From Torpedo marmorata (taxonomy: Eukaryota): 64,000 bases of DNA. The stretch covers positions 93,248,001 to 93,312,000 of the forward strand of contig OZ360230.1 in the NCBI GenBank assembly GCA_977017645.1. The letters are read 5' to 3'. The translations under genes were made by a program, and so were the position numbers. Shown in pieces: positions 6,382 through 63,790 of the stretch (position 1 is its first letter; the number at the start of each line of letters is the position of its first letter). Below the pieces are notes generated by a model that was not told where the DNA came from, ran no database searches, and saw only the letters and a list, made by a program, of their open reading frames with translations.

Positions 6382-6383
6382 TA

Positions 6384-6850
6384 TTTGAAGTCTGCAGTTC
6401 TGGTTTCTGCATGTCAAGGATAATGTGGAGAATTTAGAGAGGGTGCAGAAGAGGTTCACCAGGGTGTTGCCAGGATTTGAAAGTATTAGCTGCAAGGAGA
6501 GTTTTCTCTGGAGCATCGGAGGCTGAGGGGCAACTTGAAAGTATATAAAATTATGAAAGGCGTAAGTAGCATAGATAGACAGACTAGAAGATATTAGTTT
6601 TGGGTGAGTGGGGGGAAAGTTTAAAGGAGATATGAGGCATTTTTTTTACATGCAGAGATTGGAAGGTGGTGCAGGGAATTGGCAGTAGCAGATGCAATGT
6701 TTAAAAGGCACTTACACATAAGCAGATAGGAAATAGAAGGACACAGACAACATGCAAGCAGATTAGATTGGTTATTTTGGAATCGTAGTCGGTGCAAACA
6801 TGGTGGACCAAAGAGTGTGTACTTATGTGGCACTGTTCCATATTCTAGAC
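6384..6850 (+). mobile_element. CR1 LINE 3' fragment
   Basis: GCAGTTCTGG...GAGAGGGTGCAGAAGAGGTTCACCAGG...GGAGGCTGAGGGG typical of the CR1 ORF2 end and 3' UTR. Confidence 0.8.
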
Positions 6851-12699: not shown

Positions 12700-13200
12700 T
12701 GTGACTCTGCTTCGCCCCCTCTGCTTGGCCAGGCTCGAACAGGAGCGGAAATGAGGCAACGCGGGCAGACCGGAAGTGGTGCTGGGGTTGGAGTTGCTGC
12801 GCAGCGCTGCCGACGAGAGCCTGAGCCGCGGTGAAAAGAGGGAGAGCGAAGCAGCGTCTGTGCCCAAAGCAGAGTAGAAGAGAGGCTACATCGCTGTGAT
12901 CGGTCAGTCAGGGCGTGCTTGAGGCTTCCCCGTCGCGGTTGGCGGGCCTGGGCTTTATTATTGTTGCTTTACGCGGAGGCCCCGACTGTCGGCGTCGGGA
13001 GCCGATCCCCGGCCTCGTCTCCCTTCGCCCAGAGCTGAGCCAGTGTTAGCGGGGTCGGGGGAGGGGAGCGAATGCCGCACGCTCGGGGTTGGTCTCCAGG
13101 TCCTGTTAGCTGGTCCCCAAGAGCTGCCGATGGTTGCCATTGACACCCTGTCACACCGGGGACACAGTGTGGCATCCGCCCAACAGCCCCGCTGGAGGTT
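12700..13200 (+). promoter_or_regulatory. FAM168B: CpG-island promoter of FAM168B with ETS/GABP-type sites
   Basis: Only non-repeat CpG-rich stretch upstream of the coding exons. It contains GCGGAAAT (12745-12752) and CCGGAAGTG (12770-12778), followed by a donor-like CG|GTCAGT at 12902/12903. Confidence 0.75.
12775..12902 (+). other. FAM168B: Putative non-coding exon 1 of FAM168B (TSS approximate)
   Basis: GC-rich segment just downstream of the ETS sites, ending at ATCG|GTCAGT. The first coding exon has an acceptor just upstream of its ATG, so an upstream UTR exon is required. Confidence 0.6.
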
Positions 13201-13449
13201 GAAATAAACTGTGCGAATGTTGTGGGCCCATTGAACCAGAACTTACCATTGCTATTGCTTTTCCTTGCCTTATTGGTACTGTCAACAGGTCAACCCTTGT
13301 CTGTGATGTCTCAAGGTTCGACCGCGGAGATTGGTATTTCGCTAATATTGACTTATCATCATTTACTCTTGGTAACATTGGTTCCAAAATCTATTATTTT
13401 TGGAGTACAAGATCCGTATAGAAATACTTTACAATCTTCAATGTACCCT

Positions 13450-14660
13450 TTAAAAAATCTGAACACAGAAACAGGACCAGGAGTTGGGTGTAAAGCTGTT
13501 TTGCCATTCAGTAAGATCGTGACTGATCCATTCTTGGCCTCAACGTTATTTCCCCCTTCTCTTCGCCATTGATCCCATGTAGTTTAAATGTCTTTCACTC
13601 TTAAAAGTATGTTCAATGAGTCTGCCTCCACATTCTCTAGGGTAAAGAATTCCAATAATTCACGACTCTAAGAGAAATTCCTCTGAGTCTCTGGGTGAAT
13701 CATTTCTCTGAAATTAGACCCTCTCCTCCCCAAGTTATCTGCACTAGGAGCAAAATCTCAAGAATTACACTGGCTATCTCCCTCAGAATTTTGTACTTTG
13801 ATGAAATTGCATCGACTTCCTAATCTTTGTGCTCCATATCCCTTCAAATTTCCTTCTTTCTTGCCTGTTACCTTTGTTTTGTATCAAATTAAAAGTGTTT
13901 TACTGCCTTGCTTTCTTTTAAATATCAATTTTCTTTTTCATTCTTCCTTGCAAACTGGATAATTTTGCATTTTGTTATATACTTCATCTCCCAGTTCCTT
14001 GTTTTTTGCTTAGCCTAACTAACCTTTTTGGAGGCTCTTTTATCAACTTGCTCACCCACTTATTTTGTATCATCATCTAATGTTACTGCTGCAAATTCAG
14101 TCCCTTCATCCAAGCCATATCAATGATTATAAAATAAATGAGGCCTAGCATTGATTCCCATGGTATTTCACTAGTCACTGTTGACCAATGTGAAAATTAA
14201 CCATTTATTCTGATTATTCTGATTCAGTCCCCTCCTTATGCCAGTACATTACCTCCCCAGTCTGTGTATATGGTCACCTCAGACCCTCTGCAAATCTAAA
14301 TATGCTACATCTACTTTCCACTTTATCCACCATTTGTTATGTTCATAAAAAAACACAGAAAACAAATCTGTAAAGCATTATTTTCCTTCCATGAAACGAT
14401 GTTGACTCTTGTGATTGTTTTGTGATTTTCTACATTCTTGCTATTACTTCAATTACAGATTCCAGCATTTTCCTAATGATAGATGTTAGGTTAACTGGCT
14501 TATAGTTTCCAGCTTTGTTGTCCTCCTTTCCTGAATAGTGGAATACATTTCTGTTTTTTCAATTCTCTGGGATCTCTAGAATCTAGGATTTTTTTTGTAC
14601 ATTAGTGCATCTATTCTCTTTCACTCTTCCTCCCTCTGCAGCTATGTCCTTTAAGACCCA
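13450..14660 (-). mobile_element. Degraded CR1 fragments
   Basis: Antisense CR1 RT/3' UTR motifs (GTTAGGTTAACTGGCTTATAGTTTCC etc.). Confidence 0.65.
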
Positions 14661-15639: not shown

Positions 15640-17170
15640 AACGTAGACAACATCCCAGCTGTTGTTCCAAACACCTGTGTTCCAGGAGCAGTTGTTCCTC
15701 TGGCCAAGCAGTTTCAGTACATTTCAACTCTGACATCTACCTGTCAAATGTGGAAAATTGCCCAGGTCCTTGTCTGCAAAAAGTAGGACAATTCTAGTCT
15801 AACTAATTACTGTCAAATCAATCTCCTGTCAATCATTACAAAATTTTGGAAAGTGGTGGTAACAGTGGTACTAACTCTCCAATAATCTGCTCAAAGATGC
15901 TAAATGTTGGGTTCCACTAAGATTACTTGGTTGCAGGCCATATCACAACCATGGTCCAAAGAGTTTTGTTCCAGAAGTGAGGTGAGAATGTCTATGGCTC
16001 CAGTGGAGTGCATGTCTTCAGCACTGTGGCTGGGATCTTGTTGACATTATTTTGGTGGAATTAATTAAATACACTAAAGATTGGCTGATGTGATGGTGAG
16101 GATGTTTGGTGAATGTCAGGGTAGATCATCCACTCAGCACTTCCAGCTGGACACACTTCAGAATGCTTGAGCCTTGTTTTTGGCTCTCACATGCTGAGCC
16201 CAGTTATCATAAAGATGGGGATGTTCTTGGCATCTACACCTCCCACTAACTGTTTAGTTGCCAATCACCATGAACAATTAGATGAGTGGTATTGCAGAAC
16301 TTTAATTCCTGGTTGTGAGACAATTTAAGCTTTTTATGTGATGTATTTGACAGTGTGTGATTGAGGATCCCTGGTAAAATTGGTCAGTGTCCATCAAGGG
16401 GCAAAGATTCCAATGGCTGGAATCATGCTATTCACAAAAGAAGGTAGTTATTGGTTAGTTATCCTAACACCAAACTTTGAAGAAGGGCTCAAGCCTGAAA
16501 CGTCAGTTATGTATTTCTACCTTTGCTACATAAAAGACACTGTTTGAATACTTTGAAGAAGGGCTCAAGCCTGAAACGTCAGTTATGTATTTCTACCTTT
16601 GCTACATAAAAGACACTGTTTGACCTGCTGAGTTTCTCCAGCATTTGTGTTTTTTACTACATTATTACGGTGTCTACAGATTTTCGTGTTTACTTTCTAA
16701 CACCAAATGGAGTTCATGAGGTCAACCACCTGCTGCTTCATCAGTGATTTTTGTGCCATTGTAAAGTTAGAAGTGGTGCTTTTGCAAATGATTGTGCAGT
16801 GCTTGATTCCATTCATCTCAACAAATAAAGCATTCCACCCTTGGAGGCAAGCAGGCCTACACAACATTCAGGTTTAGGCAGATATGTAGCAAGTAACATT
16901 CATTTCAGATATGGGAGAATCTAACCCCCTATCCAACTAATGACATTCACAGCATTACTCTGATTCCCCCAATGTGAATGTTCTGGAGCTTTCATTGACT
17001 AGAAACAAAACTCAATCTGCCAACTAAGTACTGGAGCTGCCAAGTGGATTGGACATCGAGTGTTCTGCTGAAAGTGACTTGCTTCCATGCATCCAAACTT
17101 TTCACTATCTACAGAATACAAATCAGGAATGCAATAGAATATTCAGCACTTGATTGAATACAGTGACTAC
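15640..17170 (+). mobile_element. Old CR1/L2-group LINE RT fragments
   Basis: DNIPAVV...CVP...PLAKQFQ...MWKIAQV motif (ORF 15586..15786); similar antisense remnants at ~20690-21500. Confidence 0.55.
16475..16696 (+). mobile_element. Short Penelope-derived element with two tandem 76-bp units, each carrying a minimal hammerhead-like motif
   Basis: Units at 16474 and 16550; 11-bp TSD CTAACACCAAA (16464-16474, 16697-16707); 3' part matches the Penelope end TGACCTGCTGAGTTTCTCCAGC. Confidence 0.85.
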
Positions 17171-17414
17171 AACATGCTGGTTGAACTTTTTTCTAATTAC
17201 TGTTTGGATTTATCTGTCAAAAATGTCATTTATTTACCTCAGCACAGATTTAATTGGCTTAACCAGTAATTTTTGCCATGTAGGATATTTGCTTCAGTTT
17301 CAAATTTATATTAGGCATTTGTATGACAGATTTGGTTGAATGATTGCTCAACGTAAAAAGATTTGTTAAATATGACTTGAGTAGGGTTTCACTGATCTGT
17401 TTTGGGGGCCTAGG

Positions 17415-18143
17415 ACCAGAGGTATATAATCCAGTGATCATTGGGGGATCAGAGGTGGAGAGGGTGAGCAAATTTAGGTTCTTGGGAGTCACTATTTCGG
17501 AGGATCTTTCCTGGACCCAACACACCAATGGCATCGTGAAGAAAGCACGTCAGCACCTCTACTTCCTCAGGAGTTTGCGGAGGTTTGATATGACACCAGA
17601 AACCCTGGAAAATTTCTACAGAGGTGTGGTGGAAAGTGTGCTAACCGACTGCATCACAGTCTGGTATGGGAACACCAATACCCCTGAGCGTAAAGCCCTC
17701 CAAAAGGTAGTGATCACAGCCCAGGACATTACAGGCAATACCCTCCCCACTATTGAGTACATCATCAAAGACCCACACAACCCAGCACACGCTCTGTTCT
17801 CGCTGCTGCCATCAGGGAAGAGGTATAGGTGCCACAAGACTCACCAGGTTCAGGAACAGCTGCTACCCCTCTACCATCAGAATCCTCAACGACAAAGTAA
17901 ATCAGAAACTCGTTTAAGGACTCTTGTGCACTTTATTGATTTTCTTTGTTCTCTCTGTATTGCAGTCAGTTTGTTTACATTCATTATTTGTTTACAGTTA
18001 TTTTATTTGTTTACATGTATACGCTGTGTACAGTTTATTTTTGCACTACCAATTAGTGGTAATTCTGCCGCGCCCGCAGGAAAAAGGAATCTCAGGGTTG
18101 TATGTGATGTCATGTATGTACTCTGACAATAAATCTGAAATCT
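17415..18143 (+). mobile_element. Rex1/Babar LINE 3' fragment
   Basis: ORF 17344..18126 (VERVSKFRFLGV...KKARQHLYFLRSLRRF...VWYG); tail TGACAATAAATCTGAAATCT. Confidence 0.9.
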
Positions 18144-18256
18144 ATTATAGGCTCAAAAGAAAAGTGTTGGTTATTCTGCACAGAAGGGAAGAAATTTCTT
18201 CACCTAGACTGAATTTTCCAACCAAGAGATGTGTAGAGGCCCAGTCATTGGTTATA

Positions 18257-24161: not shown

Positions 24162-26048
24162 CATCTGCATTGTACGTTTTATGTCAGTGACCAATCTGAG
24201 CCCTCTTCCTTTGCTCTGTCCTGTTGCAATTAAATCATATTTTATACATTGCAATTGATAAAATGGATTAATTTATAATATTGTCAAAATATTGAAATAC
24301 AGGTGAAGCTACAAATATATACATTTCTGCTTGTGTAAATCAGAAGAAACTGTTGCAAAATTTATTGTATATAATTAGGAAATAAATGTCCTTACTCGTC
24401 ATGGTTGCCCAACGAAAGTTGATTTATTGCATGTTATGTTTTTTAAATCCTGAAATCTATTAGTGTTGAGTGTGATATGAAAATTGCTGAAGTTTTTTTT
24501 GTTATGCATCTTTTTCTTTTAAATATATTTGTAGCCATTTTACAGCTATTCAAGGTTTAAATTTAATACTGCTATCCTAAAATATTGTCACCAGTGAGTT
24601 CATCTGTTCTGAATGTAAATCTGTGGACCAGATAGTTACCTCTTATGATTCCATGTTACATAACTTTGGACGCTGACCTATCTTGCAATGATAATGTTTA
24701 TTGTCATATACATTGTACAATCCATATGTGCACCAAAATTCTTATTTGCTAAAGCCAAACAGGTACAGTACTTTGTTTTAAAAGAAAACTGCATTAGTCT
24801 ACTTAATTGAATTAAAAAGAGTCAATGCAAAAGATAATATTCAAATTATCGTAGTGCAAAAATAATGTGACTGCAGACAGTCCTTTGTGGTGTTGGAGCA
24901 GTCCATGATTTGTGTTACAAGGGGAGGTTCAAGAGTCGGATAGCTTTTGGGGGGAAAGAAAGCTATTCTTGAACCTAGAGGTAGTAGTCTTCAAGCTGTA
25001 CCTTCTGCCCAAAGCCATCAGTGAGAAGAGGATGTGACCAGGGATTTTCACAAGAAATTTGAAATTACTTCAACATTCCCCTGAATAGCCTTCCTTTTCA
25101 TTTCCCACCCACCCCCCCCCTCTCTCCCCGTTACCTAGACATGATAATTCAATGAAATTCTGCTTTATTTTCATCTGAACTTAATTTTCTACAAAAGCAG
25201 TATTTGAGGATAATTGTAATTCATATGTTGACCTATTTTAAAGATGACTTGTTACATCATCAGAGATTATTGTTGGAATTTGTCTCCTATCAAAGCAAGA
25301 TTGTGGAAAAAAAACTTTTAGTTAAATGTGGCAAAATATTAGAATAAATGGAACATATTATCTGTGCTTTGCTTGTTGTTCTGAATGCCCAATCAGGTGG
25401 AATTGAAACAAGTGCTTTTCAAACTTTGTGAGAAAATGTTGTACTCTCCTGGGTGCTGAAACTGAAAGGAAGTGTGACAGAAAACAAGTCTTTGCTTACA
25501 ATAACTGGAATAATTGAGAGGCCCAACGATACAAGGAGATACTTCAGAATATAGTCATGGCTTAATTGGGAGGTTCTGGTCTACATTATCATTTAAATTT
25601 TCAATAAAATTAAACCTGCTTGAGTCTGGTTTTAATTTCTAAAATCTTGTTTGTTTCAAATCAGTCATAAGTGTACTGGTTCTGCGGCCCCAAGGGTAGT
25701 GGTATTTGATGTAAACGGTGAGCAATAATGTTGGCCAAAGGTCCTTCACATGTTGGTTGCATTAATAGGAATTTAAAAACTCATCCTAATTTCATAACAA
25801 AGTTGTGGCTCTCAACAAGTGATTGTTTGCCACTGGATCTTATTTGAAAGAATTTATATTATATTAAACTTTTCACCTTTGTATAAGGAGGAATGAAAAA
25901 CAAACCCTTTTTCCCAAAGTTTACTGTTGACCAAATGTTTGTTTTATTTACAAAAATATAAAAGCGATAAGCCAATATATCTGAATTACTACTGACAATA
26001 TGAAAAATGCTGAATATATTTTCTATTACACAGCTCCTCAGAAAAACG

Positions 26049-26118
26049 ATGAACCCAGTCTATAGTTCAGGTGCTTCAGGAGTTCCATATGCAAATCCAA
26101 AAGGCATTGGATACCCAG
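26049..26118 (+). CDS. FAM168B: FAM168B coding exon 1 (MNPVYSSGASGVPYANPKGIGYP)
   Basis: ATG at 26049; translation matches the FAM168B N-terminus from recall (MNPVYSPGSSGVPYANAKGIGYP). Acceptor ttacacag ends at 26033; donor CAG|gtacac; 70 nt, phase 1. Confidence 0.96.
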
Positions 26119-26260
26119 GTACACTGAGTTTAATTTGCTAATTTACAAGAAAAAATGTTCAATTGTTATGGAATAAGGTGATGAAGAGAAGGAGTGAAGA
26201 TTAAAGATAAAATCAATATGAAGTCGAAAGAGCTGATATCTGACTGCAGAGCACAAAATT

Positions 26261-27085
26261 TCAGAATCAGAATTTATTGTCATGAACAAGTCACGAAATT
26301 CGGTGTTTTGCAGTAGCATCATAGTGCAAACATTCATATTATGTACCATCTTACAACAATAATATAAAAAATAAAAATAGTAATGCACGAAAAGTAAGGC
26401 AGTGTCTTTGGTTCATTGATTATTCAGGAATCTGATGGCAGCGGGGAAGAAGCTGTCCTTGTGCCGTTGAGTGCTCGTCTTTAGGCTCCTGTACCTTTTT
26501 CCCGATGGAAGCAGAGTGAAGAGGGCATGGCCTGGGTGGTGGGGGTCTTTGAGGATGAGGCTGCTTTTTTAAGACCACCTCATGTAGATGTCCTCGATGG
26601 AGTGGAGTCTGGTGCCTATGATGTCGCAGGCAGAGTTAACAACCCTCTGGAGTTTTTTCTTGTCCTGAGATTTGGCGCCTCCATACCAGACAGTGATGCA
26701 ACCAGCCAATATGCTCTCCACGGTACACCTGTAGAAGTTTCCGAGAGTCTTCGGTGACATACCGAATCTCCTCAAGCACCTCACAAAGTATAGCCGCTGG
26801 CGGGCCTTCTTCGTGATTGCATCAACATGGAGGCTCCAGGACAGATCCTCGTTATGTTGACACCCAGGAATTTGAAGGTCTTGACCCTCTCCACTACTGA
26901 GTCCTCGATGAGGACTGGGTCGTGTTCCCCTGACTCCCTCCTGAAGTCCACAATCATCTCCTTATTTTTGCTAACATTGAGCGCAAGGATGTTGTTGTGA
27001 CACCACTCAGAGTTGATCTATCTCCCTCCTGTACACTTCCTCATTGCCATTTGTGATTCTGCCGACAACTGTGGTGTCATCGGCA
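26261..27085 (-). mobile_element. Rex1/Babar LINE 3' fragment (second subfamily)
   Basis: ORF 26569..26784 (LRRFGMS...FYRCTVESILAGCITVWYG); tail ACAATAAATTCTGATTCTGA. Confidence 0.88.
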
Positions 27086-27496
27086 GAATCACAAATTTCA
27101 ATACCCTGTTGAAAAAACAGTGAATTTTATACATTAGAACAGTATAATTTTAGGGACTCCGTTAAATAAGATTAAAATGGATTGAAGTGTAATTTTGATT
27201 TGTAGCAATCTGTGGCTGTGTTTGTGACATGCTCTGTGAGTCAATGACTTATTTCCATTCTGCTTTCACTACATCTTGTCATCAGCAATGAGAATAGAAG
27301 TTAACAATTATTAAAGTGATTGGAGAGTAAGGCTGAAAATCATTTTTAAACCATTGCTTCGTAATGATTCTCAAAGAAGTTTTAATATTGTTTTACATTT
27401 AATATTTAAAATTTTGGTCTGTTTTTTATTTTTGGCTGTCACTCTTTTTAAAATTAATTTGGACTCATTTGAACACTTGATGTATTTTGAACAAAG

Positions 27497-27580
27497 CAGG
27501 TTTTCCAGTTGGCTATGCAGCAGCTGCTCCTGCCTTTTCTCCTACTGTGTATGCTGGTACTAACCCAGCCTTTCCAACAG
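27497..27580 (+). CDS. FAM168B: FAM168B coding exon 2 (AGFPVGYAAAAPAFSPTVYAGTNPAFPT)
   Basis: 84 nt, phase 1-1; acceptor aag| (alternative cag| 3 nt downstream); donor ACAG|gtatag; matches the FAM168B GFPxGYAAAAPA motif. Confidence 0.95.
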
Positions 27581-27702
27581 GTATAGTACCTTTTTAATTG
27601 TTATATGTAACTGATTAGAAAAAAAATAAATGTTTGCCGATATGGTTTTGTTGCTTTTAAAGAGTTGAGTGATAAGAAAGTGGTTATAAATAAAAAGGGG
27701 TA

Positions 27703-27870
27703 AAACACAAAAGTCTGCAGACACTGGTTGAAGTAAAAACGCAATGCTGGAGAAACTCAGCAGGTCAAACATTGGTTATGTATATCTTTGCTATATAAAG
27801 TACAATGTTTCGGGCTTGAGACCTTCATCAATGTATGACAAAATGTAGGCAGGCACCCAAACAAAAAAAA
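27703..27870 (-). mobile_element. Penelope terminal fragment
   Basis: AAAGTCTGCAGACAC...GCTGGAGAAACTCAGCAGG; reverse complement contains TTGATGAAGGTCTCAAGCCCGAAAC. Confidence 0.75.
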
Positions 27871-28956
27871 AGGTGGTTATAAATCTTTGGTTCATTTAAG
27901 GCCACAATGTAAATTTACATACCAATTCAGCTGGGAAATATCAGAGCTCCCTTTATTTTCCTTTAACATTTCACAATACCAAATATGGAAGGGCATAAGG
28001 GAAATCAAGAGCTTTGCCATAGAATTGTATGTTTTAATATGTTACACCTCATTCTTTAAGATCAATGAGTTTAGGACCAAGCTTTTCAACCCTTCTCATA
28101 AAACTTCACCCCAATAATCAATCGAGTGAACATTTTTCTGTGCTACCTTCAGTGCAAGTACATCCCTCCCAAAACTGGACTCTGTCCTTGTGTGATCTCA
28201 CCAAAGTCCTGTATTATTACAGCAAGGTTTCCCTGCTGTGAGCAGTTTTCCAGTTGTGTTACCATCAACTTGTGGTTCAGTTCAAGCAAGACCCTTGATG
28301 CATACTCCATCTCCATCATTCCAAAGCCCATCATTCCATTTGCCTTCCTATTCAGTTGCTACATGCATGCTAACTGTGTTTCTTGTAGAAGGACACCCAG
28401 ATTCCTGTTAGGCAGCAATTTGAATTAACTCCATTCAAAACAATATTCTGTTTCAATCAAAATAAATAGCCTCACACGTTACTATTTTATATGTGTCTGC
28501 CAATTGTTTTTTCAATCATTAACCTTTTCATTTGTAGACTGTCCTCCTTCTCACATTGCTTTCTATCAGCAATGCAATCGATCCCTTCATCTGTCATTGA
28601 TATAGCATGAGGTAAAATAAGAGCCCATCACTAATCTCTGTGGGGCCACACCCATCGAGCTACAACCCGCCATCCTGAAGAATTTTCAGACAGCAGAGAA
28701 GAAATTTTCAACCCATCTATCAAATATTCAAATTATAAATTTGCAGACCATTTTTTGAAGATCAGTCGTAAACCCACATGAGAGATTATTTATGTTGTCT
28801 TACATTTGGGAGATTTAAGACGAAAATCATTTCATAACTAATTTTTGGTATTGTTTTTATTCTGAGTTTTTATTCAAATTGGTGAAATTGGAATTACTTT
28901 CTTCATGGCTATCATTAGGCTTATACTGTATATGGCCCTTTTCACTAAAACCAGTG

Positions 28957-29130
28957 GAGTGAAACAAGAAAGGCTGCAGACACTGTGACTCAGCAGGTCC
29001 CGCAGCATCCAAAGGAAGCAAAGATATATAACCAATATTTCGGGTCTAAGCCTTTAAGGATTTTACATCTTTGCCTCCTACAGACACTGTGGGAAGTGCT
29101 GAGTTTCTCCAGCAATTTTATGTATTTATT
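28957..29130. mobile_element. Inverted (palindromic) Penelope terminal remnant
   Basis: A Penelope end on the minus strand joined to one on the plus strand (ACTCAGCAGG ... GCTGAGTTTCTCCAGC). Confidence 0.65.
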
Positions 29131-29279
29131 TGCACTAAAAACAAAGTTTGCTTTTTATAGAACAAGAAATTGAGAACTCATTCTCTCTATACCTCCACCA
29201 TTTTGCATCATTTTGGAATGAGTTGTGCATCCCTTTTTAGTGGTTGTTCTGACATTCTTGGATTATGCTTTTATTTCAG

Positions 29280-29422
29280 GTTATACGCCAGGCACACCTT
29301 ATAAAGTTTCGTGTTCTCCAACCAGTGGAGCTGTACCACCATACTCCTCCTCTCCCAACCCATACCAGGCAGCTGTATATCCAGTTCGAAGTGCCTATCC
29401 ACAACAGAATCCTTATGCACAG
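29280..29422 (+). CDS. FAM168B: FAM168B coding exon 3 ([48 protein letters not shown])
   Basis: 143 nt; acceptor ttttatttcag|, donor CAG|gttaga; nearly identical to the vertebrate FAM168B peptide; visible inside ORF 29225..29470. Confidence 0.97.
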
Positions 29423-30405
29423 GTTAGAAACAGGGAATTTAGTTTCACAAACTTATTAGAAATCATATGATTTTAAAAGTCAAATATACTTTTTGAGGTT
29501 GTGCTGTTCCCTTCAAAGTGGCTGGTAAAATCTTCAATTATTGATTGGACCAAATATTTTGCTACTGAACTCTCAAAATGCAAACCACTTTGTACTTGGT
29601 ATTGCAGAAACCCTTGAATTTGAACCATATCAATATTGGCCAAAGATGTTTATTTTCAGATGCACTAGCATCAAGTGAATTATCACAGAATTTTGCAATA
29701 ACTTGTGCCTCTCAGATTAATGGTGGTTCTAACATTTTTTGATTCTGCCTTTTCTGGTTATACATCAGGCACTATTCTTTGAAACATTTTTCCACCCACT
29801 CTTGCTTTATAAAAATTCAGAAATCCAGAATATTTAATCTGTAAATTCAGTTCTTGCACATTGCTAGGCTTACATCATGGGTTTCCATCTATAAATGACT
29901 TCTATTTTAAATGTGCATCATCAAAATTTATGATGCCAAATTATATGCCTTAAGTGAAGTATTTACAAATGCAGACTGTGGGGTCAGTACATTTTATACA
30001 ATATTGTGTATTGTCAATGTTGAGTGATTAGCTAACATTTTATTCAAAATGTTCCAAGATGGAGCCTAGTGTGGGTCATATGGTTGAAGGCAGAGAATGT
30101 ATTTTATTTAATTAATTTGCTGTAAGATGATTGAATTATATCAGAAATGTTACATTTCTCAATGGGGTATGATGTAGAAATTTATGCAGTGATGTCCCAG
30201 GAAAAAAAAATCACTGAGATAATATTAATCCAATCATGAGTTAATGATGGTCTAATTTAGAACAGACATTAAATATGACTCCTATCCCAACAGATGAATT
30301 GAAGGATACCCTCAATTACTGGGCTTTTTTCAAGAAATCTACCTTGTTAGTAGAATTTCTATATAGAATGAAGGGGGACTGGAGACTAATAGTTAAGAAC
30401 ATATA

Positions 30406-31182
30406 CCGTATATACTCGTGTAATCGTTGTATTTTTTGGACCAATTTTTCGGGTCAAATTTGGGGGGGGTCGACTTTTACACGCTGTAAGTACCTGCATC
30501 GTTCAAGACGTCGGGAGCTCGGAAGGCCGGGAACTGGTGGTGCGTACGCGTTCGGGGCATCGGGAGCACAGATGGGTGGACGAGGCCTTGGAGAGAGTCT
30601 GTGGCCGGGGCGTCGGGAGCACAGATGGGCGGTCAGGGCCTAGGAGAGAGTCTGTGGCTGGGGTGTTGGGAGCTCAGATGGGTGGGCGGCCGGGGTGAGG
30701 GTCCGTGGTCGGGGCATCGGGAGCTCCAGTGGGCGGACGGCCGGGGCGAGGATCCGCGGTCGGGGCATCAGGAGCTGCTGTGGGCGGGCGGCCGTGGCGT
30801 CGGGAGCTCCAGTGGGCGGACGGCCGGGGCGTCGGGAGCTCCAGTGGGCGGACGGCCGGGGCAAGGATCCGCGGACGGGGCGTCGGGAGCTCCAGTGGGC
30901 GGGCGGCCGGGGCGAGGATCCGCGGTCAGGGAGTCGGGAGCTGCTGTGGGCGGGCAGCCGGGGCGAGGATCTGCGGACGGGGCTTCGAGAGCTTCGGCAG
31001 GCAGGTGGCCGGGGCGAGGATCCGCAGTCGGGGCGTTGGGAGCTCGGATGGGCGGTCAGTCGGGGCCAAAAAAGGGGGGTTGACTTTCACACGGGTCATA
31101 CGAAAAGGCACGATTTTTGCCCCAAAATAGGGGGGGGGGGTCGACTATTACACGGTATTGACGATTACATGAGTATATATGG
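30406..31182 (+). mobile_element. Tc1/mariner MITE, family A copy 2, with expanded ~53-bp internal tandem repeat
   Basis: TA|ccgtatatactcgtgtaatcgt ... acgattacatgagtatatatgg|TA; internal units GTCGGGAGCTCCAGTGGGCGGACGGCCGGGGCGAGGATCCGCGG. Confidence 0.88.
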
Positions 31183-31741
31183 TAGATTTGGTTTTAGCTT
31201 GGATAGAAAGTGTGTATCAGATAATAGACCTCGTGCTCCTCAAGTTGATGTGCAGGAGCCTGATTCAGAATACTGTATCTCTCTTCTTTGAATGATTGCT
31301 TTTGCCCCAATCCTTAAGTTAATTGATGTTGTGCTGGGATGGAAATCAGAGTTAAGAAAAGTGCTGTTGTTATGCTTGTACACTTATAGCTTTGCAATAA
31401 GCAACTGCTGTGACCAAGGCATTTCTCTGCTATCAGAATTAAGAATTCATGCTAATGGTTATGGATTGACAGAATGCAAAGTTGGGGAAAGTCAACATGT
31501 TAGTTCAAACTATATCACCTTACTATAATCAAATTACTTTTAATCTGGAGTAATAAAACGTAACCAAAATATGGCATTAAATGTGGATTACAGAAAAAAT
31601 ATACAAGAAATGTTGAACCTTCAAAACATTTGTCGCAGTCTTTCAATCCTGAAATCCAGTTCCACAATAATGACTAGTTAAATGTGGTAACCGTGATCAT
31701 TGAAATCAGATTTAGAATTGTATCTGTATTTAGAATTGTAT

Positions 31742-31990
31742 GGGCGGCAAGGTTGGCGTAGCGGTTAGCGCAACACCTTTACAGCGCCAGCGATCGGGAC
31801 CGGGGTTCAAATCCCACGCTGTCTGTAAGGAGTTTGTACGTTCTCCCCGTGTCTGCGTGGGTTTTCCCCGGGGGCTCCGGTTTCCTCCCACTGTTCGAAA
31901 CGTACTGAGAGTGTAGGTTAATTGGGTGTAAATTGGATGGCACGGGTTCGTGGGCCGAAATGGCCTGTTACCGTGCTGTATGTCTAAATT
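31742..31990 (+). mobile_element. V-SINE (HE1-like)
   Basis: Same structure; intact B-box GGTTCAAATCC. Confidence 0.9.
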
Positions 31991-32339
31991 TTTTTTAAAT
32001 GTCTACATTTAAATTTAAAATTTTTTTAAATTTTGCAACTGTAAATTATTTTGCCATTGAACGTATTGGAAGATGTTCTATTTTTTTTTCTGTTGCCAAA
32101 GAACCAAACCACTCTTAAGATGCAGTCCAAGTAACCTAAAATCAAGGCTTAATCAATGGGATTTCATTGAAATCTTGTATTTGCAATAAAATAGGATAAA
32201 CAAGGTAAGATTGATAAGACCAGAAAATACACAAAATGGGCCCTGTTCAAATCATGTTGTCTTCCCCTTCTACATTACTCATTCAAACCAAATGAAAACA
32301 AGTATATCTACCGCAAAATTGCAAATTGTAGATATTTGC

Positions 32340-33200
32340 CCCAGACTCGTCCATTTATCCTTGCCTTCCACCCAGCCACATTCAACAAAATATCTTGTGT
32401 AATTTCTGACACCTGCAGCATGATTCCATTAACAGATGTATCTCTCCTCCCCATTCAGCATTCTGGAAGGGTAATTTTGTCTCTTGCATTCTAGTTCACT
32501 TTTCCAACTCTACTAATACATATTCTTCACAGTATAATTGCAGGAGATATAATGTCTTACCACCTCCTCTACTATCATCTGGAGCACCATACTGTTTTAA
32601 GATGAAACAGCTATTGGTTTTTCTAGTTTAATCCATTGCATTTATAGTTTACAATGTTGTCTCCTTGAAATGGGAAGAATATGCAGATCGGATAAACACT
32701 GCACAACACCTCCATTCAGTCCACTAGTATGATCCTGAGCTACCAAGTTGCTTGCCAGTTTAATTCTCTAACCTGCTTCCACTCTGACCTCCAAATTTGC
32801 TTGGACAAGGTTGAGGAACAACGAAGCAGCTTGCACCTGGAATCATGACAACATTCTGTGCTCAGCACAGAGTTCGGTAATTTTAGATCATCAGAATTCT
32901 TAGCCTTTACCGTAAGTTTCATATTTCCACCAATTGCTCTTTTTTTCCTCCTGGTGACTTCAGATATTTATTTATCTGTCCAGTTTACAAGTCTCCCTAA
33001 CCCATCTATTGTTATGATCCTTAAAACCTCGTCCACCTTTTGTTATTTAATTTCTTTTGCTTCATCTATATCTCTCTAACCTTTCTTTCCATCTCAAAAC
33101 ATGTTTTACCTGTGATTTTTCTCAGTTCTAATGCAGTCATTGACCTGAATCTCTGATTTTCTCTGCATGAATGCTGCCTGGCCTATTGGATATTTAAAGC
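32340..33200 (+). mobile_element. Older degraded Penelope fragment
   Basis: Diverged similarity to the GIY-YIG and 3' end of the other Penelope copies. Confidence 0.55.
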
Positions 33201-33471
33201 ATTCTCCATTTTTTAATATTTACTGAGATGTTTTTCGAGTTGAAGCTTTTACTTGAGCAGTTTGTGGTTACAGACGTTGAAAATTCATGCAATAATATGT
33301 TTTTGTTAGCCTGTCCCCAGTGTAAAATTTCAACTACTTTTGTGGTTCTAGGATATTTGTATTATATAGTAGAACTTGAATTTTAAGATGCAAATCATGT
33401 GTTCTACAAATGTCCTAATTTACCTCTCCAATTGTCCCTCAACAGTATCTTACATTTTTCTTTTTAAATAG

Positions 33472-33649
33472 CAAGGCACTTACTACACACAGCCACTATA
33501 TGCAGCACCACCGCATGTAATTCATCATACCACAGTTGTCCAGCCGAATGGAATGCCCGCTGCCATGTACCCCCAACCAATTCCATCACCCAGAGCAAAT
33601 GGTGTTGCCATGGGAATGGTAGCCGGGACCACTATGGCAATGTCAGCAG
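33472..33649 (+). CDS. FAM168B: FAM168B coding exon 4 ([27 protein letters not shown]...[12 protein letters not shown])
   Basis: 178 nt; acceptor tttttaaatag|, donor CAG|gtgggt; contains the FAM168 hallmark [17 protein letters not shown]. Confidence 0.97.
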
Positions 33650-34284
33650 GTGGGTTTCAATTCTTTTGAGACCAATGTTTTGAATTTAGCTGTCTGTCTA
33701 ATGCAAATGGAGTAAAGTGGAAAGGGAAGTGTTAAAAGGGAAGTGAGTCAGGCAATTCAATATTTCAAATTGTTCACAGGACATTACATTTTAAAAGAAA
33801 GTAAAGCATGATATTAGTCAATGGTTGTGCATTTCTTAAATCTTAAATATTTCAAATTATTAACAGAATATTACATTTTAAAAGAAAGCAAAGAAGCATG
33901 ATATTAGTTCATTGTTGTGCCAGAACATTGAATGTCTATTCATAGATGTAACATTGCTCTGTTTTGTTTTAGAAGTTTTGAATTGAATGAAATATTACTA
34001 AATTTGACTTGCAAGCTCTCAATTTCATGTCTAATTTCCAATTATTCCATGTTTTTAGTTCCATCCAGTCATTTCTGTCCCACTAAGTTCCAGTAACAAC
34101 CTTGGTCATACTCTGACATTGCATACAAGGCAAACTATTACTCCATTGTCTGTAACCTTTGACACAATTGATCCAGACTATTTCCCTCCCAAACCTGTTT
34201 TTTCTACAACTTCTCCCTCAACAGTATCTTTCATTTGTTGGGAATTCTCTTGTCTGGTTTAATTTTCGCACTCTAGTGAACATT

Positions 34285-36115
34285 GTATAGGAGATAATGT
34301 ACTAATGTGGACAGAAAAGTGGTTGGCAAGCAGGAAACAGAGACATAAATTAGTCCTTTTCAAACTGGCAAGCAGTGACTAGCGGGGTACCACAAGGTTC
34401 AGGGCTGGGACCTCAGCTATTTGCAATCTATATTGATCAACTAGATCAGGGGCGGGCAACCTTTTACCATGCGTGGGCCGGATGGTGTGTCAGTGGTTGA
34501 ACGGTGGGCCGTACTGATGCTACCATAAATGAAATAAATAAATAGATGGAATAAATAAATTGAATGAATACGATGATGCATTTCAGGTCAGGGAAGGCAT
34601 CTTCAAATCTGGAAATGCGCCAAAAATAACGAGTTAGTCATTAAAATGACACAATAAAAAAAAAACCATAAAAGTCGAAAAGGAGAAAAATTAGTCACAA
34701 TGAACACAAAATAACTAACCCCAAAACAGACAGCAGTGAGAGGGGGAGAATGTCACAGTGGAGAGCAGGAATATCACACAGAGAGGGTGAGCCTCACACA
34801 AAGAGGGGGGGCTCTCACGCAGAGAGAGGGGCGTGTCACAGAGAGAGGATGAGTCACACACAGAGAGAGAAAGTGACAGAGAGAGGCATTTACGCACAGA
34901 TAGGGGGAGCCACACACGAAGAGAGGGATTCACAGAGAGAGAGAGGGAGTCCAACCCAGGGAGAGGAAATGCAACACTCTGAGAGGGAGTCCAAAACAGA
35001 GAGGCAGATGATTGTAGAGAGACAAGGAGTCACACAGAGAGATGGTGTCATATACACACACAGAAAAAGTCTCACATACAGAAACAGGAAGTGAGAGAGA
35101 GAGGGGAGTACCACACAGAGATAAGTTGAAAGAGCGTTACAGAAAGAGGTGGTGTTGCAGAGAGAGAGAGAGGTGGATTCTCACAGACACGGGTCTCTCA
35201 CAGAAGAGATGGGTCTCACACAGAGGAGAAGGCTCTCACAGACAGCGGGATAATGTCACCGTGAGAGGGGGGAGAACGTCACAGGGGAGGGGGGTCTCGC
35301 GCAGAGTCGGGGGGGGTGTATCCACAACAGAGGGTGGGGGGGTCTCCAACGCACAGAGCAGGGGAGCCGTGCACCAAAGGTGGGAACCGCGCACAGGAGG
35401 GGGGGGGGGGAGCCGCGTACCGGGCCGGATAAATTTGGCCCGCCGACCGTAGGTTGCCCACCCCTGAACTACATGAAGAAATTTCATGAAATACTCTAAA
35501 TTTGCTGATGACCCTAAACTCGGTGGCAGTGCAAGCTGTGAGGAAGATTCCAAAGTTTGCTTGGAGAGATGAGAATACAGCAGATGCATTATATTGGAGA
35601 TAAATGTGAGGCTATCCACTTTGGAAATAATAAGAAGGCAAATTATCTGAAATTAGGAGAAGGGGAGGTGCAACGAGACCAGGATGTTGTGGTGCATCAG
35701 TTGTTGAAGGTTGGAATGCAGGTACAGGCTGTGTAGAAAGCCTGGGTTTATGCTCATTGAAATTTAGTAGAATAAGAGGGGATCTCATTGAGGCATGTAA
35801 AATTCTAATAGAACGAGATAGGTTAGATGCAGGAAGAATGTTCCTGATGTTGGGGAAGTCAAGAATAAGGGGTAAGTCATTTAGGTGTGAGATGAGGAGA
35901 AACCTTTTCACTCGATTTGTGAACTTGTGGAACTCCATTCCATAGAAAGTAATTGAGGCCAGTTTGTTATATATAAGGGAGTTGTGTGTGGTACTATTGG
36001 CTAAAGGGATTAAGGGGTATGGAGAGAAAGCAGGAATACGGTACTGAATGATGAGCCATGATTGTGTTAAATGATGGAGGAGGTTTGAAGGGCTGAATGG
36101 CCTTCTATTTTCTAT
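34285..36115 (+). mobile_element. CR1 fragment split by a hAT element
   Basis: GTGACTAGCGGGGTACCACAAGG before and TTTGCTGATGAC...IRGDLIEACKI after the hAT insertion. Confidence 0.8.
34447..35466. mobile_element. hAT (Charlie-like) non-autonomous element with GA/CA-rich internal low-complexity array, inserted in CR1
   Basis: TIR CAGGGGCGGGCAACC / GGTTGCCCACCCCTG; 8-bp TSD aactagat/aactacat. Confidence 0.88.
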
Positions 36116-37128
36116 TTTTAGTGGTAAGCCAAGAATTGCTTGCACACACACCTTTGAATTCTTCAAGGTATCTTTCCTGTTTCTCATCAGCAGAATCATC
36201 CAAAACACCCTGTGCTTTGTATGCTGAAAATGTTGTCCTTCCACCTCTCTTTAATCCTTCCTCGCATTGGTATCTGACATCCAGTGCTGGATAACTAGTA
36301 ATTTATGTTAACTAGATATTGTGAAAACCCCAAAGCCAATCGTTTTCCTTTACTCCTGATTCCATCCTCCATGGTAATAATTTGAAACTGAACCAAATAG
36401 TAGCAATATGGGTTTCGAACGACATATGCTTCCACTGCCTGACTCCTGTTGTGCCTCAGCTCACCAATTGCTGAATATTTTATCCATGCCTTTGTTACCT
36501 CAAGACCTCACTGATCCAGTACTCTGTGCCAACATCTTATCTCATACCTTGATAAATAAGAGCATCCAAGAACCTACCCATATCCCAACGTTTTCAATTT
36601 GCGGTCTGGTCTCCTTGTGTTTCTAATAGCAAATGGTAAGTGAACTGCTTGAGTTAACCTGCTAGGTTTCTATGCAATGTTTTTAATTCTGGTATTTTGA
36701 TGCAAGTCGTGCAGAGCAACCTATTTCTGGTACTAAAGCAGTTGGAAAGAAAACTGCAGTCAAGGATAGAGAATTGCTCACTATTCAAAAATTGAATTTT
36801 TGTTTTAATATATACAGTTGATTTGTGTTCAAATGACCTCATTTCCTTAAGATTTGGTTCTCTGTTTAAACACTAGCATTTTTCTACACTCAAATTAACC
36901 AACAATATATTGATGCAGTGCCCATTATGTTTGAATTTCATGGTGAGAAGGAGAATACAGGAATGATTTCTGTCATGTGCAATCGTTATTTAGCTTTCCA
37001 TATTTATTTGGAGCTGAATACCTGAATTCAATGCCTGAATACAATAGGATTGTAGATCCTTTGTCTTCTATCTTTTGGTGTTAATTAAATGTGACTGAGA
37101 TTTAACTTTCTTAAATTCTTCTTTGCAG

Positions 37129-37241
37129 GCACTTTGTTGACTACCCATTCTCCAACGGCAGTAGCTCCTCATCCTGTTTCCATGCCTGCTTATAGGACTC
37201 CAGGAACACCGACTTACAACTATGTGCCCTCGCAGTGGTGA
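37129..37241 (+). CDS. FAM168B: FAM168B coding exon 5 ([37 protein letters not shown])
   Basis: 113 nt to TGA 37239-37241; acceptor ctttgcag|. The spliced CDS totals 588 nt = 195 aa, the FAM168B length; it lacks the extra exon of FAM168A. Confidence 0.97.
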
Positions 37242-47009: not shown

Positions 47010-47778
47010 AGAGCCATATTCTGTTCAGTTCTAGGTGCTTCAACTGAGTAAAATGTATTGGTCTTAGGGAAAAATCCAATTGATTCATAAAATTAATAAC
47101 AGATCCAATTATAGTTATTCACAGAAAATAGATGAACCAAATGAATGCCCAGGAATTAAGATGATTAGGAGACCATTTGGTTATTTTGAAAGGAACTAAT
47201 TAGAGAAAGAGAATAAGAAGTGACGAGTGCTAGGATAATGAACTGGAAGCTTGAAATTGGGTTCAAGATGGTGAGGAAACAATTTTGCATGTAAAGGGTC
47301 AAAGTTTGGAGCTCTTACTGCCAGAAAGTTGATAGCAATCAAGTCAATTATAAATATGAAATTGATTTTATTTTGCTAGATAAATATATATGGAAAAAGG
47401 TAACTGGATGGACCAATGATGATGACAATGTTGAATGGCAGATATGCTTGATTTTGTCTTTTGTGTACTTTGTTCCTTAACGACTATTGCAAGTGCTACT
47501 GGGGGAATGAAGAGCAAGGAGATAATGATGATAATTTGGATTTGACACCAGGAGTGCTTTATTTTTAATCATACTTGTGAACAAGTTGTAGGTTTCCAGC
47601 TGGTTTCTCGTTGCAACATACAACATTACACAAGAAATAGGTGCACGAGTGGGCCATTCAGCACTTGTATCCATCTGTGCCATTCATCAAGATCATGACT
47701 GGCCTTCCACTGCAGCCCCATTTTCTAGCACTATCCCAGATCGGTAGCTATATTTCTGGAATTCAAAGAATTGATGTT

Positions 47779-48830
47779 AAACAAAGTCTGCAGATACTGA
47801 GGTAGAGTGCAATATGTGCTGGAGAAACTCAGCAGGTAACATAATATCTATAGGAAGTAAAGGGTAACCAACATTTCAGGCCTGAGCCCTTCGTCCAGGT
47901 ACGAGCAAAAAAACTGGCATGCACCTGAATTTAAAAAAAAAAATTCAGGGGGTGGGGGTGAAGAGGATAGGAAGGGCAGCAGGAGGAGCACAGGCTGACA
48001 GGTAAGGTAATAGGTGCATGCAGGTGAAGAGAAAAAAGCTGATAGGTGATGGTGTAGAGTAGCTCTCTGATAGGAGAGGGAAGGGGAGCTGGGGGAAAGG
48101 GGATGGGGAAAGAGACGCGGAGAGGGATTTAACGGAAATTGGAGGTCTGTTAATGCCATCTGGTTAGTGAGTGCCCAGACGAAATATAAGGTAGTGTTCC
48201 TCCAATCTATGGGTTGCCTTGGTTTTGCAGTGCATGAGGCCATGGATGGACATGTCAGTGTGTGAATGGGTGGCCACAGGAAGATCCTTGCTATTGCAGC
48301 GTACGCAGCGAAGATGCTCAACGAAACGATCTTTCAAATTCACTGATGTGGAGGTCACAGCGGAGACACTGGATGCAGTAAATGACCCCTACAGATTCAC
48401 AAGTGAAATGTTTCATCACTTGGATTGTTTGGGGCCCTGAATGGTGGTGATGGAGGAGGTGTGGGCGCAAGTGTAGCATTTCCAGCAGTCCCAGGGGTAG
48501 GTATGGAGGGGGCAATGAGTGGGAAGGGATGAGTGGATCTGCGGAAAGCAGAGAGGGGAGGGGACGGTGTGCCTGGTGGTGGGATCATGTCAATGGTGGA
48601 AATTGTGGAGAACAATGTGTTGAATGCGGAGGCTGGTGGGGTGATAGGTGAGAACAAGGTGAACCCTGTCCTTGTTGCATCTCCAGGCGAAGGGGGCCAG
48701 GGCAGATGTGCGGGAAATAGAGGGGATGCGGATAAGGGCTGAGATGATGGCACTAGGGTGGAAGCCATTATTTTTGAAGGAGGACATCTAGGATGTTCTG
48801 GAATGGAATGGAGACGGAGGAATTGAGAGT
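47779..48830 (-). mobile_element. Penelope-like element 3' part (GIY-YIG remnant plus pLTR-like end)
   Basis: HFTCESVGVIYCIQCLRCD..., LKDRFVEHLR..., LEEHYLIFRLGT; end contains CTGGACGAAGGGCTCAGGCCTGAAATG (hammerhead-like). Confidence 0.88.
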
Positions 48831-49239
48831 GGAAGACCTCATCAAATTGATCTCTTTAAATGAATGTAGTGATTGGCTCAGACACCACAGCTGTCTGGCG
48901 TACAGAATGCCATAGGTTCAGCAGATGCTCACTGAAGCAATTCCCCCTCATTTCTGTCCTAAACACCCAAGCCCTGAATCTCAAGCTGTAGTGCCTGGTC
49001 CCAGAGGAAGCATCCTCCACACCAGCTTGTTAAATCCCCCTTCGTGTGAACTAATCCCTGCAGTTTATGGCAAAGCAGCCATTTTTGGATCCACTGCAGT
49101 GAATCTTAGCTGTATGTCTCTCCATGGTAAAAAAACATGCTTAAATCTAAACAAAAAAATACAGAATGTTCCAGGAGTGGTCTCCAAGAAACCATATAAT
49201 TGCAGTCAGATTTCCTCCTGAAATATAAACCTGGGTGGT

Positions 49240-56165: not shown

Positions 56166-56166
56166 A

Positions 56167-62145: not shown

Positions 62146-63790
62146 AAAAAACTCCCTCAATAACCTCTCCTTTAATTTATCCCATTTTCTCTAAGTCAAA
62201 GGTGTAGCCATGGGTACCCGCATGGGCCTCAGCTATGCCTGCCTTTTTGTTGGCTACGTGGAGCAATCATGCTACATAGGCAAGGCCCTTCAACTCTTCC
62301 TCTGCTACATCGACGACTACTTTGGTGCTGCCTCATGCACCCATGATGAGCTCATCAACTTTATCTACTTTATTGCAAACTTCCACCCAAAACTCAAATT
62401 CACTTGGACCATCTCTGGCAACACTCTTCCCCTTTATCGATCTCTCTATCTCCATCTCGGGAGACAAACTCTCGACAGACATCTTCTACAAACCCACCAA
62501 CTCAAACAGCTACCTTGACTACACCTCTTCACACCCTGTCCCCTGTAAGGATTCTATTCCTTTCTTTCAATTCCTCAGCCTGTGTCGCATCTGCTCCCAG
62601 GACGAGGTCTTCCATGCCTGATCATCAGGGATGTCCTCCTTCTTAAAACAACTACCACCATTAACTTAGCCCTTACCCGCATATCCTCTATTACCCACAC
62701 ATCTGCCTTGGCCCCCTCCACCCCCAACGCGTAACAAGGACAAGATTCTCTTTGTCCTCACCTACCACCCCACCAGCTTCCTGATCCAACACATCATACA
62801 TACAGACATACAGCATGGTAACAGGCCATTTTGGCCCATGAGTCCGTGCCGCCCAATTTACAAACTATTAACCTACACCCCGGGTATGTTTTGAATGGTG
62901 GGAGGAAACCGGAGCCCCCGGAGAAAACCCACGCAGACACGGGGCAAACGTACAAACACCTTACAGACAGTGCGGGACTCAAACCTATCATCTTCTGCCA
63001 GCTTTTATGTGATCCCATCAAAAGTCACATCTTACCTGCTCCTCCCTTTTCTGCCTTCTGCAGGGAACGCTCCCTCCCTGACTCCCTCATCATCTGCTCC
63101 CTTCCCATCCACCTTGGCACCTACCCCTGCGACCGTAGGAGATAGAACCATAGAACATTACAGCACAGAAACAGGCCCCTTCAGCCCTTCTAGTCTGGCA
63201 ACACTCTCCCCTTTATCGATCTCTCTATGTCCATCTCGGGAGACAACTAGAGGTGCTCCACTTGCACCCACACCTCATCCCTCACCACCATTCGGGGCCC
63301 CAAAAAGTCCTTCCAAGTGAAGCAACACTTCAGTTGTGAATCTGCACGGGTCATCCACTGCATCCGGTGCTCCTGTTGTGGTTTCCTCTTTATCGGAGAG
63401 ACTGGACTCAGACTGGGAGATCACTTTGTTTAGAACCCTAGCTCTGTCTGCCACAATAGCACGGATCTCCCAGTGGCCACCCATTTCAATTCTCCGCCCC
63501 TTTCCCATGCTGACATGTCTGTTCATGGACTCATGCACTGCCAAACTGAGACCACCCACAAATTGGAGGCACACCATATTCCATCTGGGCACCCTCCAAC
63601 CGGATGGCATTAACATTGACATCTCCGGTTTCTGTCAGCCCCCCCCCCCCCCCGACTCTCCCCCTATTTCTCTTTTCCTCTTGGTCTGTCTCTCTTTCCC
63701 TTTCCCTCCGCCTCCTTTCCTCCAGCTCTGCATTCACAGAGCCACCCCCTCCCCCAATCAATTCTCACCTTTCCTCTCCTATACAGAGAG
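62146..63790 (+). mobile_element. Penelope-like element (RT plus GIY-YIG remnants), interrupted by SINE and CR1 tail
   Basis: GVAMGTRMGLSYACLFVGYVEQ...YIDD..., DIFYKPTNSNSYLDYTSSHP; the downstream GIY-YIG region is homologous to 47779-48830. Confidence 0.9.
62798..62986 (-). mobile_element. 5'-truncated V-SINE inserted into Penelope
   Basis: V-domain and tail present; flanked by ATCAT at 62793-62797 and 62987-62991 (likely TSD). Confidence 0.85.

Follow-up and report, generated by a model that had tools for sequence, protein, structure and literature searches.

The window, which is the whole 64,000-nt stretch of DNA that was analyzed, contains the coding exons of a FAM168-family gene on the plus strand (26034..37241), with splice sites that were read from the sequence. 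All three of the exons tested matched the Pfam family TCRP1 (PF14944), with E values of 5e-6, 8e-21, and 4.7e-34. The exon carrying the ATG (position 26049) spans 26034-26118 on the plus strand, and the five coding exons at 26049-37241 sum by hand to approximately 194 codons, which fits the length of FAM168B. A CpG-rich stretch at 12500-13500, which has a donor-like site at 12903 and also contains a CCGGAAGT motif, is likely to include a non-coding exon 1 ending near 12902 and is a candidate promoter. None of the ten public runs listed for this DNA was an RNA run, an outcome that carries no information on expression. Because this likely non-coding exon lies at 12500-13500, the insert that is the subject of this analysis (16464..16707) is probably located in sense within the first intron of FAM168B. 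A preliminary description of this DNA had assigned the insert, in sense, to intron 1 of FAM168B; the gene family and the orientation are confirmed by the plus-strand TCRP1 exons downstream of the insert, and the intron number itself depends on the candidate exon 1 near 12902. The same CpG-rich stretch also contains a 32-nt end of a Penelope-like element (PLE) tail at 12520-12551.

The insert is bounded by an exact 11-mer, present at 16464-16474 and again at 16697-16707 on the plus strand, with 222 nt between the two copies. The last A of the left copy is also the first base of an exact 74-nt repeat with a period of 76, in which 16474-16547 is 100% identical to 16550-16623. The plus-strand segment at 16548..16696 was recognized from homology within the window, alignment, and family depth as the 3'-terminal 149 nt of a 5'-truncated PLE copy, and upstream of it, 16474..16547 repeats the first 74 nt of this tail once more, forming a partial tandem. 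The two 76-nt-period repeats of the preliminary description are therefore present as an exact 74-nt doubling, but the repeated part accounts for only 150 of the 222 nt, as the second unit is followed by 73 nt of element tail that have no hammerhead and occur once (16624..16696; the depth peak of the family spans 16586-16683). No coding sequence is kept in the insert.

Two lines of evidence bear on the direct repeat. When chance was judged by an exact match of at least 11 nt between two 30-nt windows placed 233 nt apart, 4 of 2,000 random placements at the spacing of the target-site duplication (TSD) qualified. Contigs from four public runs (X1, X2, X6, and X10) were also aligned to window positions 15900-17350 at a threshold of at least 85%. 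A 293-nt contig from X1 (contig 2) joins 16323-16463 directly to 16697-16839 at consecutive record positions (150/151) and represents the empty site, in which the 11-mer occurs once; a chance origin was therefore rejected, and the 11-bp repeat is a genuine TSD. The 222-bp insert with its exact 11-bp TSD, and its arrival as a one-step mobile insertion, were both borne out by the coordinates and this empty site.

In X2, a 1,697-nt contig spans both flanks, with 35 letters in the place of 274 in the window; the insert is absent there as well. The flanks of X1 differ from the window by 15 substitutions over 1,233 bases plus a few indels, and those of X2 by 62 substitutions over 1,177 bases. No piece crossing the insertion site in X6 or X10 and no filled allele in any of the runs was found among the matches listed, and the evidence for the 74-nt doubling thus comes from the assembly. 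Since the insert is missing from the same site in X1 and X2, the insertion is recent. At window position 16342, 9 nt that X1 and X2 each contain are missing, and the two runs also agree in three flank substitutions; the window therefore carries the derived state at these positions.

Several homologies identify the insert as the 3' tail of a very abundant Penelope-like element with a GIY-YIG endonuclease that resembles Neptune. Over 144 nt the tail shares 74% identity with 27836-27703, and over 95 nt it shares 72% with 47901-47817. The second of these regions belongs to a longer minus-strand copy of the same family (47775..48886), identified by tblastn and alignment, in which a decayed C-terminal open reading frame (ORF) encoding the thumb, a cysteine linker, and the GIY-YIG endonuclease (48886-48149) is matched by PLE proteins (tblastn E values of 6.5e-20 for the L012 ORF and 4e-37 for P0002) and is directly followed by the tail (47925-47775). 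Because the homologous tail directly follows a PLE-matched ORF, the insert can be taken as the 3' end of an element encoding reverse transcriptase (RT) and GIY-YIG, in agreement with the Penelope origin proposed in the preliminary description. The first region is a single-unit tail copy on the minus strand (27680..27884, tail 27857-27699), which has a 12-bp direct repeat of its own (27680/27873) as a TSD. Homology searches also identified a decayed RT plus GIY-YIG PLE copy on the plus strand at 62153..63630, representing the protein-coding partner family. This copy is interrupted by a short interspersed repeat (62804-62985) that also occurs at 2113, 15380, and 31743, and by its own upstream 54 nt (62414-62467, copied at 63194-63246).

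Inverted pairs of truncated tails were found by BLAST and profile search at 28958-29133, 46373-46555, and 46795-47009, and short tail scraps lie at 12520 and 53557. The insert and the three inverted pairs display the 5' truncation with partial-tandem or inverted repeats that is characteristic of PLE insertions, which are described as highly 5' truncated and as often forming partial tandems with inverted truncated copies (PMC8557442). The pair at 46795-47009 has a 12-bp direct repeat (46771/47007). The number of contigs aligning at 85% or more over 15900-17350 was 53,824 in X1, 35,160 in X2, 30,478 in X6, and 201 in X10, and their depth is concentrated on the PLE tail with a peak at 16586-16683.

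When the RT piece of the 62153-63630 copy was used as a query, 79 related metagenome loci were recovered. The long ORFs of all four loci tested matched Pfam RVT_1 and/or GIY-YIG, in every case below the gathering scores; the L025 ORF, for example, matched RVT_1 at residues 72-252 (E of 5.4e-5) and GIY-YIG at 490-523 (E of 0.001), both below the gathering score. A cysteine linker of the form CX2-5CxxC was present in the window ORF at 48416-48589 and in P0001, P0002, and P0007. This motif is common to Neptune, Nematis, and Naiad (PMC8557442) and points to a Neptune-type element, a placement made by motif only. Pfam searches of eight window ORF scraps gave no relevant match (one irrelevant match at E of 0.23), and a word-indexed protein search with the 48167-48340 scrap gave no match.

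Each of the two units contains a minimal hammerhead motif on the plus strand. Motif 1 (16473..16508) has U3 at 16477, G8 at 16482, stem II at 16485-16496 closed by a G.U pair, GAAA at 16497-16500, and a putative cut after 16504, whereas motif 2 (16548..16588) has U3 at 16553, G8 at 16558, and a putative cut after 16580. The core reads U-U-G-A-A-G-A at 16477-83 and 16553-59 and is followed in both units by an extra A, stem II (GGGC/UCAA/GCCU), GAAA, a C-G, and GUC at 16502-04 and 16578-80, the positions given previously for the two triplets; stem I is 3 to 4 bp long. The type I architecture previously claimed thus stands as a motif, with the extra base between positions 9 and 10.1, the GAAA, the palindromic 15.2-16.2, and the NUH site all present in both units. 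The core departs from C3UGANGA with a Watson-Crick 3-8 pair in that both units have U3 with G8, and the G10.1-C11.1 pair is replaced by G.U in the insert compared with G-C in the 27-kb copy. A minimal-hammerhead descriptor written for this analysis, allowing any base at position 3, matched only these two sites within the 64-kb window and had no match in any of 20 block-shuffled windows; the pair of motifs is not due to chance.

Searches with existing models and patterns returned little. An Rfam search of 2.2 kb at E values up to 10 gave five weak unrelated matches and no hammerhead. Scans with exact patterns gave 1 and 0 matches in viral contigs, 0 in metagenomes, and 4 in prokaryote genomes; these five viral and prokaryote matches were dropped as chance because only 17 to 22 nt were matched. 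A plasmid blastn search gave no match.

The earlier statement that each unit folds as a hammerhead holds for the match to the motif but not for the predicted fold. The MFE z score is -0.59, free folding gives no hammerhead, and in the predicted pairing the cross helix III has a probability of 0.0 and stem I of at most 0.02. A nested double hammerhead in cis with both cut sites formed can nevertheless be drawn, and the suggestion that two copies could supply each other's helix III is geometrically possible according to this model. Forcing the double hammerhead costs 16.6 to 20.3 kcal/mol (three spans); when 13 canonical C3 motifs were doubled in silico with an identical period, the corresponding cost was 13.8 to 24.6 kcal/mol. 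As the cost for the insert falls inside the range of these canonical controls, folding energy has no discriminating power here and was not used as an argument against activity.

The U at position 3 is found in all three younger-type window copies that keep this position, including the 27-kb and 47-kb copies, which indicates that U3 was inherited and is not private decay of the insert; the older-looking inverted pair at 46795-47009 has C3. Among the 79 related metagenome loci, the descriptor identified 14 motifs of the same layout, comprising 13 with C3, 1 with G3, and none with U3. The insert has a U2.1-A1.1 pair in place of the C-G of the 47-kb copy, and this replacement could be a form of compensation. 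The 47-kb copy contains a second non-canonical core, U-G-G-A-N-G-A (47905-47860, minus strand), which is also implied by the letters at a joint in X1 (16521/16482), and this second core hints at a relaxed catalytic constraint in this PLE lineage. The preliminary description had noted the replacement of C3 by U but gave it no weight; with G8 kept, it is likely to be a defect.

Published work on related ribozymes is in line with low activity. The preliminary description cited Cervera and de la Peña for efficient cleavage as dimers, which misquotes the source: PMC4209133 reports that monomers of the PLE minimal hammerheads are inactive, that dimers and trimers have low activity, and that the mimic of helix III is "far from" canonical ribozymes. 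A review describes PLE hammerheads as very slow even as dimers (PMC6765202), and a recent preprint reports cleavage in one of nine dimers (Li et al. 2026, bioRxiv 10.64898/2026.07.22.740005). The hammerhead of an Anolis PLE is reported to have cleaved only with the element's protein, to be dispensable for insertion in vitro, and to have no RNA-seq ends at the cut site (PMC11167929). Complete mutational scanning of a type III hammerhead, a ribozyme that differs from the dimeric minimal hammerhead of the insert, gave low activity for all mutants in the CUGA region except a C-G swap (PMC9901934), and natural covariation at positions 3-8 goes to U3-A8 (PMC3088659).

Both changes found here have published precedents. 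Position 3-8 in the 56 published representatives in Fig. S3 of PMC4209133 comprises 53 with C3, 2 with U3-A8, and 1 with U3.G8, and the last of these, a PLE-linked family, has the same UUGAAGAA sequence; the notion of U3.G8 as a new core variant was rejected on this basis. The same figure has G.U at the base of stem II in several families, including Schistosoma mansoni(1). Because published families carry U3.G8 or G.U, neither need be fatal. The literature search found no figure for a measured effect of C3U in a minimal dimer. Measurable cleavage at high Mg2+ is conceivable though doubtful, and there is a very slight chance that the host transcript is really affected; the host pre-mRNA could be cut, as had been suggested, but this is unlikely to matter.

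Contigs from the public runs were also used to ask whether the dimer is a family. Of the 32 matches listed among about 121,000, 26 were pieces over the element, all starting at 16548 or later, and none of these 26 crossed the junction 16547|16548. Back-jump joints with intervening letters, a kind of joint that at 85% or greater likeness often arises from repeats, numbered 12 among the matches listed (with 96 more): 10 duplicate only the hammerhead-free part, with periods of 37 to 41 and 78 to 83, 2 duplicate a 44-nt hammerhead unit, and none corresponds to the junction of the insert, although de Bruijn contigs may break at short tandems. Strand switches made up 4 of the 15 joints listed in the other joint table, so that opposite-strand as well as back-jump joints occur in the public runs. 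The tail family is found in single, inverted, and other tandem forms, and most tandems among the matches listed lack the hammerhead. This is suggestive of a family whose ends become tandem or inverted in many different registers, irrespective of the ribozyme.

The 44-nt hammerhead-only tandems implied by back-jump joints (window 16482-16521 and 16548-16590) had a depth of 73 in X1, compared with about 9 in the flank, and of 96 in X2, compared with about 19 in the flank. Because this depth is several times that of the single-copy flank, they may be multicopy, and they are better candidates for retrozymes than the insert in the FAM168B intron.

It is very probable, in our estimation, that the insert is a PLE tail with its first 74 nt doubled and a TSD on either side, likely inserted in one event by the element's own endonuclease (EN) and RT, with hammerheads that are likely weak or inactive passengers. 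Three steps of this origin were observed, namely, the staggered-cut TSD, the identity of the tail, and the recent age. In the proposed mechanism, the PLE protein would prime reverse transcription at the 3' end of the element at the target, 149 nt would be copied, and copying would halt on reaching the base of hammerhead stem I. With no microhomology involved, the RT would then jump back on its template or switch to a second RNA and copy 74 nt a second time, ending 2 nt short of the first copy, and the new strand would be joined to the target through one shared A. The hammerheads would subsequently be cotranscribed in sense within the 5' intron of FAM168B, where a U3.G8 core, helices of 3 to 4 bp, and the lack of a helper protein would make cleavage negligible relative to splicing. 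The insert is thus likely to be an ordinary by-product of insertion that self-cleaves weakly or not at all, and not a new RNA capable of spreading itself.

The doubling could instead have come later, through slippage or repair of a single inserted tail, or could be an assembly error, the insert otherwise being the same dead PLE scrap. The complete identity of the two units and the absence of a filled allele among the matches listed would fit such an account, and the birth of local tandems from an inserted PLE end has been proposed in a 2026 preprint (bioRxiv 10.64898/2026.07.22.740005). We nevertheless regard it as rather improbable. The junction between the units has no microhomology, a young insertion leaves little time for a later duplication, and unit 2 starts with AT, with the T at 16549 as in family copies, whereas unit 1 has a target-derived AA. 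The AT looks derived from the element because family pieces begin at 16548, and a doubling at or before insertion is therefore favored. A doubling before insertion is also part of an account with only a slim chance of being correct, in which a non-autonomous master, a retrozyme-like mini-PLE with two hammerheads, was mobilized in trans by the PLE protein, possibly through a self-cleaved or circular RNA. The clean TSD and recent age are compatible with a master of this kind, as are the 44-nt hammerhead tandems at depths of 73 (X1) and 96 (X2), some of which may be multicopy, and pLTR-derived dimeric hammerhead repeats have been reported in vertebrates, including one chondrichthyan (bioRxiv 10.64898/2026.07.22.740005). 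On the other side, none of the 26 listed element pieces crosses the insert junction, most of the listed tandems have no hammerhead, and the core is non-canonical. Moreover, a 76-nt circle does not contain 16624-16696 and cannot have been the template, and rolling-circle copying of such a circle was rejected because it leaves the extra 73 nt unexplained. The independent retrozyme-like 76-nt unit of the preliminary description is accordingly replaced by a PLE tail that is truncated at its 5' end and partly duplicated in tandem, which is not a pure array of monomers.

The two remaining accounts grant the dimer catalytic activity. It is extremely unlikely that cis cleavage by the U3.G8 dimer is efficient enough to sever nascent FAM168B pre-mRNA, making the insert a polymorphic modifier of expression, even though the insert lies in sense upstream of the ATG exon and a drawing of the nested double hammerhead accommodates both cut sites. 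A cut midway in a long intron often leaves splicing unblocked, which counts against such an effect. The natural precedent for U3.G8 speaks for this account (PMC4209133), but the low activity of PLE minimal hammerhead dimers (PMC4209133), the inactivity of eight of nine dimers (bioRxiv 10.64898/2026.07.22.740005), the low activity of CUGA single mutants (PMC9901934), and the protein dependence and absence of RNA ends at the cut site reported for Anolis (PMC11167929) weigh against it. A broader version would have a PLE lineage of tens of thousands of copies in which a U3.G8 hammerhead has become fixed and retains cleavage as a cis dimer, perhaps helped by the PLE protein; short tandems of 76 and 44 nt repeatedly born at insertion would amount to the birth of retrozymes, and the young insert in the FAM168B 5' intron would cut nascent RNA and free a 76-nt circle. 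We give this version little credence; if it were true, the 76-nt circle would be among the smallest proposed for a retrozyme.

The insert resembles the minimal hammerheads of PMC4209133 in its core spacing, the extra base before stem II, the 4-bp stem II, the C-G palindrome in the place of helix III, and the NUH site. In the published alignment, the Acropora row has the GGGC stem II strand and CGUC as in the insert, the UUGAAGAA core of the insert recurs in the Saccoglossus row, and none of the 56 rows is from a cartilaginous fish, the kind of host that this repeat suggests. The motifs of the insert are 76 nt apart, compared with about 3 kb in the published PLE minimal hammerheads (PMC4209133). 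Like EN+ Neptune-type PLEs (Craig et al. 2021, PMC8557442), the parent element has RT followed by a C-terminal GIY-YIG and a CX2-5CxxC linker and forms truncated, tandem, and inverted insertions; unlike them, the insert has no coding sequence, and the clade is assigned by motif only.

The insert shares with metazoan non-LTR retrozymes (Cervera and de la Peña 2020, PMC7229834; bioRxiv 10.64898/2026.07.22.740005) a non-coding sequence, a low GC content, a long TSD, and two tandem hammerhead units derived from a pLTR, and its 76-nt unit falls within the retrozyme range of 51 to 972 bp given in the preprint (bioRxiv 10.64898/2026.07.22.740005). In contrast to the retrozymes of PMC7229834, it has 73 nt of extra tail, a minimal rather than canonical hammerhead, and a U3 core. 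Two consecutive hammerhead units are present, but the insert does not consist solely of head-to-tail monomers, as 16624-16696 occurs once, and because the pure-array feature fails and the core is non-canonical, it was not filed as a non-LTR retrozyme. The insert behaves like a fragment of a PLE pLTR and belongs to that class. No description of its element was found in the literature on chondrichthyan PLE hammerheads, a search that covered few subscription papers and lay outside the repeat databases; the preprint counts retrozymes in one chondrichthyan (bioRxiv 10.64898/2026.07.22.740005).

As read here, the insert matters little in itself, being one of very many PLE tail insertions. It has a modest value as a clean, datable example, with a known empty allele, of how one PLE insertion can give rise to a two-hammerhead unit, the route by which animal retrozymes are proposed to have originated, and as a ready natural substrate on which cleavage by U3.G8 minimal hammerheads could be assayed. 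Were the dimer to cleave in vivo, the filled and empty alleles would offer a direct test of the effect of a PLE ribozyme on host transcripts.

The window contains other repeats besides those of the PLE. GC- and CpG-rich repeats at 5822-6387, 30400-31179, and 50382-50529 are 67 to 72% alike, the GC-rich repeat at 30.5 to 31 kb has periods of about 51 and 83 nt, and further GC-rich tandems lie at 4868-5394. Another interspersed repeat is found at 9563-10350, 17415-18144, 26423-27044, and 55240-56789, in copies that are 64 to 85% identical. Upstream of the 48-kb PLE fragment, a purine-skewed stretch includes a tandem with a 90-nt period (49490-49661; 1.9 copies, 75%).
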